Positions 37,334 to 40,870 of a DNA stretch of 40,870 bases are shown here, piece after piece. The DNA is taken from the UHGV virus genome UHGV-2035542; one strand, 5' to 3'. The position numbers and the translations under genes are program-made. The DNA comes from a virus. Within the stretch, counting starts at the first letter, position 1, and the number at the start of each line of letters is the position of its first letter. Below the pieces are notes generated by a model that worked only from the letters and a program-made list of their open reading frames with translations, was not told where the DNA came from and ran no database searches.

Positions 37334-39643
37334 ATGTCAGATATCACCGCAAATGTTGTGGTAAGCATGCCTTCGCAACTCTTCACTATGGCGCGTTCTT
37401 TTAAAGCTGTAGCCAATGGCAAAATTTATATCGGTAAAATTGATACTGACCCTGTAAATCCTGAAAACCAGATTCAGGTTTATGTGGAGAACGAAGACGG
37501 CTCTCACGTTCCTGTTTCGCAGCCAATCATCATTAACGCTGCTGGATATCCTGTATATAACGGACAGATTGCCAAATTCGTTACCGTGCAAGGTCATTCG
37601 ATGGCTGTTTACGATGCTTATGGGGTGCAGCAGTTCTATTTCCCAAACGTGCTGAAGTATGACCCTGATCAGTTAGAACGGAGACTTTCTTCTGGCAATG
37701 GGGCAGATTATATAGGATACCCTGGTTATGACGATTTAACCCAATTCCTACACACTACAATAAGAACTATCGAAGAGTTCAGAGAGCCAGGATACACCGA
37801 CGCACAAACATTTCAGGCTGCGGTGAATTCAGGTAGTGTAAGAATTCCATCTGGAACAACGATTGAAATCATCGGTAATGTTGATATCACAATCCCGGGA
37901 GACAGGATTATTCTCGTAGAGAATGGTGGAGTCATTAAATCCAATGGTCGATTCACTGCATACGGAGTAAATAACGTCCATTGGATTGTTAACGGATTGG
38001 TTGAATGCACTGGAATGGTGCCTGCACCTGCAAAATCAGGATGGCCTAACACTGCCGCTGGAACGCAGTCTGGGGATGAACGAGGATTTATCGAGTTCGG
38101 CGGTGTTGTATTCGCAGGCAACGATGGATTCTGCTACTCAGTAACTGGTAATGGTAGAATACAAGGATACTGGTCAGGAACTCCAAACAATAGCGATCTG
38201 GTTAACCAGGTAAACCGGAAGGGTATAGCTGCATGGAACTGCTCTCGCTTTACAGTTAAAGGCGTTCACATAGACGGATTTGAAGGTGAGCAAGTATACT
38301 GGTTCTCTCGTAACGCCAACAACCGTGATGCGTTATTCGATAGCGTAACCAGTACTAACGCACGATTTAATGCGCTAAACATGAACGTTTATAGCGCAAT
38401 GTTTAATATAGTAATCCGTGATTGTTATACTAACGTTTCCTATAATGGGGTTGAATCATCTGCGGGAGATATAATTAACACAACACATGATGGAAGTGTG
38501 AATAGTGGTATTCTTTTTGGTCTTGGTACCGGTGGCGGAAACCGGCTTATTGATAGTAATAAAGTCAATGATTGCCTTGGTACTCCGTATTCTTTGCTGT
38601 ATAACAAAGACTATGAGGGGCGCGGATACGTACCTATTGTTACTATCACAAATAACGTGGCCACAAATCCAGCAAACCATTTCATATGTGTATCTGGTAT
38701 TTCAGGGTTAAAAATAGAAAACAACATCTGCTATGGTTTAAAGGCAGGGAAGTTTATACAGGCTACTGTAATTGAAGGTGGTGTGATAAAAAACAACACC
38801 AACTACAAACCTAATGCTGGTACTCAACATGTATATCAAGCAGCTTGTTATTCCGTGTTTGAATCAGATAATGATCTTATAACGTTAGGAGGATCGTATG
38901 CTCCAACGAAATTGTCAGAACGTGCAATAACAGGTGGGTTAGAGTCGAACATCACCGCGTTCGGTATCAGGGAAAACTTTCATGAGTTAAGGGCAGGTAA
39001 TCCGCAGCTTGCATCTGGGCCGGAATACAGATTCTCTTATGATACCGGGGTTAACTTTATAGCTGCATCGATAAGTTCGAATCTTATTGCTTATGATGGC
39101 GCAGGTGCATCTGCCAATCTTTCTTTTAATAACCTGAAGATCAATAACTCCGACGTACTCGGTCAGTCATGGGAGATGACTACTCGCGGTTATTTATCAC
39201 CCGGTACTGATGGCACACAGGATTTTGGAGCTGCAAGCAGGAGAATAAATTCAAGTTATTTCACCGTATCACCTATTGTTTCATCTGACAAATGCTTAAA
39301 GCAACAGGAGGAGTGGCTTGATGATGCTGAGAAACGTGTGGCTTTAAAAATAAAACGGTTACTAAAAAAATATAAGTTAAATGACTCTGTGTTAAAAAAA
39401 GGAAATAATGCAAGGATTCATATTGGTGTGATTGCTCAAGATGTAAGAGATGCATTCTTATCGGAAAATCTAGACCCTCATTCTTACGCGCTGTTTTGTT
39501 ATGATGAATGGGATGAATCTCCTGAGATTGTAGAAAGAGATGAACATGGAACATTAACAGTCAAACAACCATATATTGCATCTGGAAGCAGATATAGCAT
39601 CAGGTATGATGAATTATTATGCTTTATAATTGCTGCTATTTAG
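37334..39643 (+). CDS. tailspike: P22-type N-terminal head-binding domain, divergent receptor-binding region, C-terminal intramolecular-chaperone-like segment
   Basis: N-terminus [17 protein letters not shown]...[22 protein letters not shown]...VLKYDPDQ matches P22 gp9; C-terminus has SDKCLK and GVIAQDV motifs reminiscent of S74-type chaperone domains. Confidence 0.8.
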
Positions 39644-39745
39644 TGTATTAATCATAAAAATGCAGCCATTTTTATAATGTCAATGCTATTGATTCAGTTT
39701 TGATGTGTGTTATATTTGCTGAAAAAACTGATGAACTAGACGAAA

Positions 39746-40870
39746 ATGGCTCAACTAAAACTAAACTCCATTCAGGTTATGCGAGGCATTGCGGCTCTTA
39801 TGGTGGTTGGTTTCCACTACCGTACCAGCCTGAATGGAGTGTATGCTCAGGCAAATCTTGGTGATCTCCTCTTCATGAATGGCGCTTTTGGCGTAGATTT
39901 ATTTTTTATAATTAGTGGATTTATCATTGTTTATTCAACTAAAAATAGAATTGAAAATACGCCTATTGCTTTCTTTATAAAAAGATTGTTCAGGATTTAC
40001 CCAGTATATTTAATTGCATTATCTTTATTGCTGATGGGTGTATTTTTTGACTTCTCAATAATGTCATTCCCTCAAACATGGTTTGACTGGAAAGATATCT
40101 TGAAATCATACCTGTTTATAACTTCTGATATGAGTCAGCAAGGCCCGTTTTATGGCTATGGGTTATTGTATCCCTCCTGGACATTGATATATGAGGTTTA
40201 TTTTTACTTTGTATTTATGATGTGTCTAATGGTAAGTCATAAGTATAGAGCACTTTTAACTGTAGTTACCATAACATCTGTTGTTATTTTTGGGCAGTTG
40301 ATTTTCTCTGGAGTAATAACTCTTGACCCCTATACTGTTTCAGTAGGTGAAACAAAAAGATTAATAGACCACGCTAAATTTATAATCAACCCTATAGTGT
40401 TTGATTTTATTATAGGTGTTTTGCTTGCAGAAGCGTATATTGCAATAAGAAAAGATAGTTACAAAAAAAATACAATTGGAATAATTGCTGTTTCTTTTGT
40501 CATCTATTCATTGTCAGCATTGTTGACTCAGTATAAGTCAGGTCACGGTGTTATGAATGGGGGGATGATTGCTTCATTTCTTTTTGTTGGCCTTGTTATT
40601 ATAGAGAGTCGGCATGATATCGGTTTTCCTAGATTTCTTTGCCATCTTGGTGATCTGTCTTACTCTATTTATCTAATACATATTCCTGTCGGATTATTTT
40701 TTGCAAAATATGGTTCGGATATACCGTGGTATCCTAAAAATCCAGGATGGGCAAAGTTCCTAACTGATCTTATGTCTGCATACTTTCTTTCACTAATCAT
40801 GTTTAATTATATAGAGAAACCAAGCGTCATCATAGGGAAAAAGCTGATCGAAAAATTGCGACTAAAGTAG
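39746..40870 (+). CDS. acyltransferase-3 family membrane protein (Oac-like O-antigen/LPS acetylase)
   Basis: About 10 TMDs; N-terminal VMRGIAALMVVGFHY and FFIISGF motifs typical of the family; very AT-rich; located next to the tailspike. Confidence 0.75.
   Translation: MAQLKLNSIQVMRGIAALMVVGFHYRTSLNGVYAQANLGDLLFMNGAFGVDLFFIISGFIIVYSTKNRIENTPIAFFIKRLFRIYPVYLIALSLLLMGVFFDFSIMSFPQTWFDWKDILKSYLFITSDMSQQGPFYGYGLLYPSWTLIYEVYFYFVFMMCLMVSHKYRALLTVVTITSVVIFGQLIFSGVITLDPYTVSVGETKRLIDHAKFIINPIVFDFIIGVLLAEAYIAIRKDSYKKNTIGIIAVSFVIYSLSALLTQYKSGHGVMNGGMIASFLFVGLVIIESRHDIGFPRFLCHLGDLSYSIYLIHIPVGLFFAKYGSDIPWYPKNPGWAKFLTDLMSAYFLSLIMFNYIEKPSVIIGKKLIEKLRLK

Follow-up and report, generated by a model that had tools for sequence, protein, structure and literature searches.

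A tailspike–acyltransferase module shared by P22-like and phiV10-like prophages and its probable link to the Escherichia coli O123/O186 O-antigen

UHGV virus genome UHGV-2035542 (40,870 nucleotides, the whole of which is called the window here) ends with a tailspike gene and an acyltransferase gene (37334-40870), and the question raised by this locus is whether both genes work on one host glycan and, if so, on which. A first-pass annotation, made from the DNA letters, had read them as a receptor-specificity and serotype-conversion cassette. This reading is supported by the transfer of the pair as a block between different prophages, by the co-occurrence of both parts in the same 8/5426 E. coli genomes and by a gtr set that replaces the acyltransferase behind a spike with 66% identity. 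We consider that the locus probably serves a P22-like temperate phage, integrated at thrW, as its module for receptor specificity and serotype conversion, with a spike that would cut an O-antigen of the O123/O186 type and an acyltransferase that would alter the same O-antigen.

One exchangeable block in two types of prophages

The new finding of this analysis is that positions 37700-40839 of the plus strand are one mobile module, which has moved as a block between P22-like and phiV10-like prophages and is present in the latter with 81-95% identity behind a different virion adaptor. The module comprises the receptor-binding domain, the chaperone, the spacer, and codons 1-365 of the acyltransferase gene; its edges lie at codon 123 of the tailspike gene (37700) and 31 nt before the acyltransferase stop (40839). 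In blastn, it forms a single ungapped-like block of 3141 bp with 95.1% (L001), 86.3% (L002), and 81.3% (L012) identity to three phiV10-like prophages, all with another N-terminal adaptor. In the phiV10-like (Uetakevirus) prophages, whose structural genes are ~95% identical to those of phiV10, the module is fused to a different N-terminus of 221 residues and occupies the slot between tail fiber and holin, which in phiV10 is taken up by a receptor-binding part of its own plus oac.

The host survey set comprised 5426 complete E. coli genomes. More than 1100 of them revealed a match to the head-binding part of the tailspike, only eight a match to its remainder, and the tailspike core and the acyltransferase co-occur in an identical set of 8/5426. 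In all eight, the match spans 37700-40839 as one block of 81-95% identity. The pair was also found with a P22-type adaptor in E. coli at another attachment site, in Salmonella enterica, in Citrobacter freundii, and in an IMG/VR provirus, and a scan of IMG/VR provided only one further close locus (L021). In every examined temperate relative with at least 74% identity (L001, L002, L004/5, L006/7, L012, L021, and L032/33), spike and acyltransferase are linked. Protein identity within the module is 75-97% for the beta-helix core, 93-100% for the chaperone in the E. coli loci, and ~90% for the acyltransferase in diverged copies.

More distant spike relatives behave as predicted for such a cassette. 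A spike of a lytic-type siphovirus with 70% identity is accompanied by no acyltransferase or other modification gene, and the temperate siphovirus-like prophage L010 (7446-10632) carries a 66%-identical spike with a Tail_spike_N adaptor, followed by a gtr-like set on the opposite strand. The L010 set, which replaces the acyltransferase, comprises three genes, encoding a 580-aa protein that matches nothing in Pfam, a small membrane protein of 112 aa, and a glycosyltransferase of family 2; this corresponds to the gtrC/gtrA/gtrB layout of a glucosylation set. In the phiV10-like slot of a further locus (L013, 3099-7179), an AT3 acyltransferase with 54% identity stands behind an unrelated tailspike of 959 aa, which argues for this slot being a general site for such pairs; spike and acyltransferase pairs thus seem to be exchanged as sets in phiV10-like phages.

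By homology, every component can be assigned to a known family, namely a P22-type adaptor, a beta-helix depolymerase, an S74 chaperone, and an AT3 O-antigen acylase. What distinguishes the locus is the co-directional gene order, the distinct AT3 lineage, the exchange boundaries defined across two phage genera, and the predicted O123/O186 specificity. Given here at base-pair level, the boundaries delimit a unit, made up of a receptor-binding domain and the gene that modifies the matching receptor, which was swapped between two podovirus lineages, the P22-like and the phiV10-like, and across three host genera. Such a unit exchange is useful for the prediction of host range from prophage sequences, though it does not overturn current understanding.

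Tailspike domains and acyltransferase

The tailspike gene extends on the plus strand from the ATG at 37334, with GGAG 8 nt upstream, to the stop at 39643 and encodes 769 aa beginning with MSDITANVV. An open reading frame start at 37286 was rejected as the start of the tailspike because the homologues are 769 aa long. Residues 1-113 (37334-37672, plus strand) are the P22-type head-binding (virion adaptor) domain, with a match to Pfam PF09008 (E 5.2e-67) over 113/113 profile positions. It also matches the solved structures of Sf6 gp14 (7sg7, E 9e-64) and P22 gp9, the Sf6 and P22 matches ranging from E 1e-64 to 1e-45. At the sequence level, the N-terminus displays ~90% identity to Sf6 gp14 and 73-75% to P22 gp9, so the P22 gp9-type head-binding domain proposed initially is confirmed. 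DNA similarity to Sf6, HK620, CUS-3, IME10, and other P22-like phages ends at about residue 114 (37672-37675), after YDPDQ. Between this end and the start of the phiV10-like matches at 37700 lies the junction of adaptor and exchangeable module (37673-37699, plus strand; residues 114-122, LERRLSSGN). An AlphaFold2 monomer model of the tailspike, built on 80 homologues, displayed a low predicted local distance difference test score (pLDDT) in the junction area, at residues 105-112.

Residues 123-650 (37700-39283, plus strand) consist of a helical cap, a right-handed parallel beta-helix, and a short C-terminal stalk, and are predicted to be the glycan-degrading, receptor-binding domain. In the model, most 10-residue blocks of residues 150-620 have a pLDDT above 90 and build up a regular ladder of beta-strands, which is the fold of a single-chain right-handed parallel beta-helix. 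Of the original description of this region as beta-helix-like and of low complexity, only the former holds, since the fold is ordered. A PDB sequence search with the beta-helix core revealed no relative of residues 123-650 among solved structures; distant spike homologues carry Pfam Pectate_lyase_3, Beta_helix, or NosD, and the closest structural neighbors of the beta-helix span GH87, GH110, GH28, PL6, and epimerases. The invariant columns in the homologue alignment include E254, E319, E374, R206, R250, K296, and a ladder of Asn residues, and E254, E319, and E374 (plus R206, R250, and K296) are candidate catalytic residues.

The C-terminal residues 651-769, plus the stop (39284-39643, plus strand), form an intramolecular chaperone of the Peptidase_S74 family (PF13884). 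Its two motifs are SDKCLK (residues 651-656) and GVIAQDV (residues 698-704, at 39425-39445); the former includes the predicted nucleophile S651 (39284-39286) as well as K656 (39299-39301), all on the plus strand. Pfam PF13884 was matched on residues 651-708 with 24.9 bits (gathering cut-off 22). A phmmer search with the last 219 aa retrieved six solved homologues, namely 6eu4 (E 7e-18), 7y5s (E 7e-17), 9vvr, the K1F endosialidase chaperone 3gw6 (E 9e-12), T5 pb1 4uw8 (E 1e-11), and GA-1 3gud (E 1.5e-10), and Foldseek matched the S74-like domain to 4uw8 and 3gw6 with probability 1.0. S651 aligns with the Ser-to-Ala position of the crystallized, cleavage-dead constructs 3gw6 and 4uw8, and K656 with their Lys; a 16-residue stretch of the spike aligns with endoNF ARIHFGVIAQQIRDVF. 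The S-x4-K pair is kept in all ~40 homologues with the C-terminal domain, including those with no Pfam S74 match.

Since S651 and K656 align with catalytic positions and are kept in the homologues, self-cleavage between S650 and S651, releasing 119 residues, can be predicted by homology. Just before S-x4-K, at residues 627-648, the confidence of the monomer model is low, which is what one would expect if this segment took up its fold only in the trimer. The two motifs had been recognized in the first-pass annotation as those of an S74 chaperone, and the Pfam hit, the solved homologues, and the conserved dyad bear this out, with an S74-like domain found by profile as well as by structure; its length, given there as ~130 residues, is to be corrected to the 119 residues of the releasable part.

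The gene immediately downstream (39746-40870, plus strand) encodes an AT3-only integral-membrane acyltransferase of 374 aa, predicted to be an O-antigen O-acetyltransferase. Residues 7-351 match Pfam Acyl_transf_3 PF01757 (E 3.7e-28; 99 bits, cut-off 31), and the protein also matches phrog_3333, annotated as "O-acetyltransferase" (E 2e-75). With at least nine strongly hydrophobic segments and a GC content of 0.345, compared with 0.472 for the whole window, it is indeed the AT-rich, multiply membrane-spanning acyltransferase-3 gene that had been noticed at first. GC content steps down from 0.48 in the phage body to 0.41 over spike core plus chaperone, and then to 0.345 over the acyltransferase gene. 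This suggests an origin of the module, and above all of the acyltransferase gene, in a gene pool of lower GC content, which is often the case for O-antigen genes.

Among 37 aligned AT3 proteins, including Sf6 Oac, the residues R13, H24, F53, F54, I56, S57, G58, R80, and R83 are invariant; they lie in the motifs R13-X10-H24, FFIISG at 53-58 (FFxISG), and R80-L-F-R83 (RXXR), which are those of the AT3 family. In AT3 proteins, according to a review of the family, R/K-X10-H in transmembrane segment 1 and RXXR in the first cytoplasmic loop are essential and probably take part in acyl-CoA binding (PMC9558356). Like Sf6 Oac, the protein has no SGNH domain ("AT3-only"). The designation as Oac-like stands at the family level and not for any closer kinship. 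Orthology to Sf6 Oac was rejected (22% global identity; 31% over 132 aa in BLASTP; genes co-directional, not convergent), and so was orthology to phiV10 Oac (no significant pairwise match, E 0.11; again co-directional, not convergent). The nearest phage-borne relatives share only 35% identity. Searches of NCBIfam provided no match for either the tailspike or the acyltransferase, and a PDB sequence search none for the acyltransferase.

The two genes are separated by a spacer of 102 bp (39644-39745, plus strand), which contains a sigma-70-like site, TTGATT-16-TATATT, with a TG-extended -10 (39689-39716), located 30 bp ahead of the acyltransferase start codon. The spacer is nearly identical in five other loci, with an invariant -10. 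No intrinsic terminator was found between the tailspike and acyltransferase genes (RNA fold z-score -0.25).

The likely receptor and competing explanations

The O123/O186 O-antigen gene cluster is present in 10/5426 of the surveyed genomes, and four of the eight module carriers possess it; these four represent three diverged spike variants. For this enrichment, the hypergeometric p is 4e-10, or 9e-8 after collapsing likely clones, both values being optimistic owing to strain relatedness. One of the carriers, E28, has been reported as O186:H34 (PMC11576411), its O-antigen cluster is annotated as O123/O186 family, and its cassette-bearing phiV10-like prophage undergoes spontaneous induction (PMC5454188). 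In an association study, one tailspike cluster was linked to E. coli O123 and O186 as well as Salmonella O58, which have a backbone common to all (PMC10370184). Moreover, C. freundii possesses relatives of both the O123/O186 Wzy (82%) and the spike (88%). The spike P0004 and the O123-like Wzy P0204, both of Citrobacter, lie close together in their run accessions, but a search for a common origin found no identical sample. The receptor of the spike is most probably the O123/O186 O-antigen, and the statement in the first-pass annotation that the substrate is unknown no longer wholly applies, given this host association. The O123 repeat consists of acylated 4-amino-4-deoxyquinovose (Qui4N(acyl)), N-acetylglucosamine (GlcNAc), N-acetyl-L-quinovosamine (L-QuiNAc), and O-acetylated GlcNAc, with no uronic acid (PMC10609480). 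If this is the substrate, a lyase would be excluded and an endoglycosidase (hydrolase) expected.

The pair is a candidate enzyme pair for the little-studied O-antigen O123/O186, which occurs in Shiga toxin-producing E. coli and poultry strains and has a reported relation to Salmonella O58. Its spike could serve as a specific depolymerase or as a reagent for typing, and its acyltransferase could be a factor that converts the serotype.

Several points weigh against an O123/O186-directed cassette. A whole-cluster search revealed no similarity to the O123/O186 cluster in the other four carriers, whose O-antigen loci were looked for and not found. The published spike cluster linked to O123/O186/O58 corresponds only putatively to the present spike family, with a taxon range that fits. 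No catalytic residues of the beta-helix were assignable, and the nearest folds mix hydrolases, lyases, and epimerases. The Pfam score for S74 is barely over the threshold (24.9 vs 22 bits), and promoter-like sites in the region are no more numerous than expected by chance in a promoter scan. In addition, L001 and L007 each carry a frameshifted copy of the acyltransferase gene, which indicates that this gene is dispensable for prophage maintenance and can decay.

A reading in which some other surface glycan, such as a group 1/4 capsule, colanic acid, or enterobacterial common antigen, is both the target of the spike and the substrate of the acyltransferase, the O123/O186 link being due to clonal spread in poultry E. 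coli, would account for the half of the carriers without the cluster, and most carriers are chicken isolates, possibly related. It would also suit the best PHROG for the N-terminal part of the spike, annotated as colanic-acid degradation though matching the head-binding domain only, as well as the classical occurrence of S74 chaperones on capsule depolymerases such as those of K1F and CUS-3. We regard it as unlikely, however, since each of three diverged spike variants (97%, 89%, and 84% identity to the window) resides in an O123/O186 host, since an independent large-scale study ties one spike cluster, putatively of the present family, to O123/O186/O58 (PMC10370184), and since the spread of the spike family to Salmonella and C. 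freundii parallels the Salmonella O58 relation and the O123-type Wzy relatives of C. freundii. In a further reading, the acyltransferase would supply the O-acetyl group that is native to the O123-type repeat, with a spike that needs or tolerates the acetylated form, so that the pairing would keep receptor and spike matched and there would be no superinfection exclusion. The O-acetylated GlcNAc tabulated for O123 (PMC10609480), the E28 cluster with no recognizable O-acetyltransferase, and the spontaneous release of phage by lysogens such as E28 are in accordance with it, but acetylation prevents infection in Sf6 and phiV10, the two phage cases that have been characterized, and six of the ten O123/O186-cluster genomes have no acyltransferase gene, which makes this explanation quite improbable.

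That the acyltransferase is a passenger unlinked to the role of the spike appears very improbable to us, even though the space after the tailspike is a usual landing site for cargo genes (morons). Its GC content far below that of the phage (0.345 vs 0.48), the frameshifts in L001 and L007, and the occurrence, in the phiV10-like slot, of a 54%-identical acyltransferase behind a 959-aa spike unrelated to the present one could be taken in this sense. On the other hand, spike domain and acyltransferase have common single recombination boundaries across phage types, spike core and acyltransferase co-occur perfectly (8/8 genomes), and the spacer is kept and the acyltransferase stays at ~90% protein identity while the spike core drifts to 75%.

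Under the preferred reading, a receptor-specificity and serotype-conversion module for O123/O186, the head-binding domain of the P22/Sf6 type would dock the tailspike on the tail hub, and the beta-helix would bind and most likely hydrolyze the host O-antigen, most probably of the O123/O186 type. The last 119 residues would drive trimerization as an intramolecular chaperone and then cut themselves off at S650/S651 by means of the S651/K656 dyad, leaving a mature spike of 650 residues. In the lysogen, the AT3 acyltransferase, whose gene may have a promoter of its own and can also be reached by read-through from the late operon, would take an acyl group (probably acetyl) from acyl-CoA in the cytoplasm and pass it to the O-antigen. 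Once modified, the O-antigen would escape binding and cleavage by the spike, whereby superinfection would be blocked and the serotype altered.

A further aspect concerns the O-typing scheme itself. The O123 and O186 gene clusters are 98-99.9% identical, and the two types cross-react serologically (PMC4732683), while O186 is absent from the main text of a 2019 review on E. coli O antigens. The O123/O186 cluster of E28 revealed no recognizable O-acetyltransferase; GNAT, WbqC, and MaoC were found along with one 324-aa protein with no Pfam match. Together with the link of the acyltransferase to the spike, this makes the module enzyme a candidate for the origin of the O-acetyl group and possibly of the O123/O186 distinction. 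It might be the enzyme still missing for O-acetylation of the O123-type repeat; lysogens that have it, lack it, or carry a decayed copy could then differ as O123 and O186 do, and acetylation in Salmonella O58 could be affected as well. We rate this idea as rather doubtful. The module is present in four of the ten genomes with the O123/O186 cluster, which is compatible with a variable factor and proves nothing. If the idea were true, one 3.1-kb phage module would explain the unresolved O123/O186 pair of the E. coli scheme.

Known systems and prophage setting

Among characterized phages, Sf6 is one of the closest to the locus: its virion adaptor is that of the window tailspike (~90% identity over residues 1-114), an AT3-only acyltransferase adjoins the tailspike at the prophage end, and the motifs R-X10-H, FFxISG, and RxxR are common to both enzymes. 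The Sf6 gene arrangement thus agrees with the oac beside the tailspike that had been cited from the outset, the outcome of Sf6 Oac being serotype conversion and superinfection immunity. The Sf6 spike differs, however, in its other beta-helix (an endorhamnosidase) and has no S74 chaperone, and its oac, under a promoter of its own, converges on the tailspike gene, whereas the window acyltransferase gene is co-directional. Phage phiV10 (Uetakevirus, E. coli O157) uses the same slot between tail fiber and holin for its receptor-binding part and oac as do the sister copies of the module, and, by annotation, its Oac acetylates the O-antigen of the host and provides superinfection immunity; its receptor-binding part is unrelated, though, the fiber has no S74 domain, and oac is convergent. 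P22-type gtrABC follows the same logic of an O-antigen-modifying set after the tailspike of a temperate phage, but there three proteins perform a glucosylation through undecaprenyl phosphate-glucose (Und-P-glucose), in contrast to acylation by a single AT3 protein.

With the K1F endosialidase chaperone (MEROPS S74; PDB 3GW6), the window spike shares the Ser/Lys dyad and the (H)xGVIAQ motif. The P22-like prophage CUS-3 displays a P22-type head-binding domain fused to a foreign depolymerase (an endosialidase), its N-terminus having 90.5% DNA identity to the window gene. The catalytic part of the K1F and CUS-3 enzymes is a sialidase beta-propeller with a triple-beta-helix stalk directed against K1 capsule, whereas the window spike has a single-chain right-handed beta-helix with a predicted O-antigen target. 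The S74-type domains of T5 pb1 (4UW8) and the tailspike gp42 of Acinetobacter phage AS12 (6EU4) align over the full 150 C-terminal residues, and the latter also joins a beta-helix to an S74-type domain; they differ in that they belong to other phages with other adaptors and glycan targets, and sequence identity outside the chaperone is negligible.

According to its open reading frames and profile matches, the window is a segment of an E. coli chromosome with a prophage. It starts with a proA-like gene of the host, encoding a 417-aa protein of the aldehyde dehydrogenase family, after which a tRNA-Thr(CGU) gene (1369-1444) and a phage integrase gene on the minus strand (1459-2619) are located, the integrase adjoining attL in the P22-type arrangement. 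The succession of these three elements indicates a prophage at the thrW site. In P22-like prophages with close relatives of the cassette, the integrase gene directly follows the acyltransferase gene, which is the Sf6-type arrangement, near yfdC-like, mlaA, and fadL genes.

The open reading frame upstream of the tailspike gene (34865-36862) matches phrog_770, "DNA transfer protein" (E 1.6e-239), and is of the P22 gp16 type. The spike gene is thus positioned after the ejection-protein genes (gp7, gp20, and gp16) of a P22-like late operon, and its close relatives are likewise located after P22_gp7, Inj_translocase, and Phage_P22_gp16. In the stretch that separates the gp16-like gene from the tailspike gene, the window carries only a gene for a Mnt-type repressor (36952-37245, minus strand), with an Arc fold and a Mnt C-terminus (Pfam Arc E 1e-14, Repressor_Mnt E 3e-14), directly upstream of and divergent from the tailspike gene. 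The 98.7%-identical relative L004 also possesses arc and ant (Arc 6747-6908, P22 antirepressor 6978-7901), which are absent at this site of the window, so its immI region is reduced. The early and regulatory region at 5232-20000 shows 96% identity to lambda-like siphoviruses (IdasGreatGrand, PhiR70_1, and others), and the virion genes are P22-like; judged by its sequence, the prophage is a typical lambdoid mosaic.

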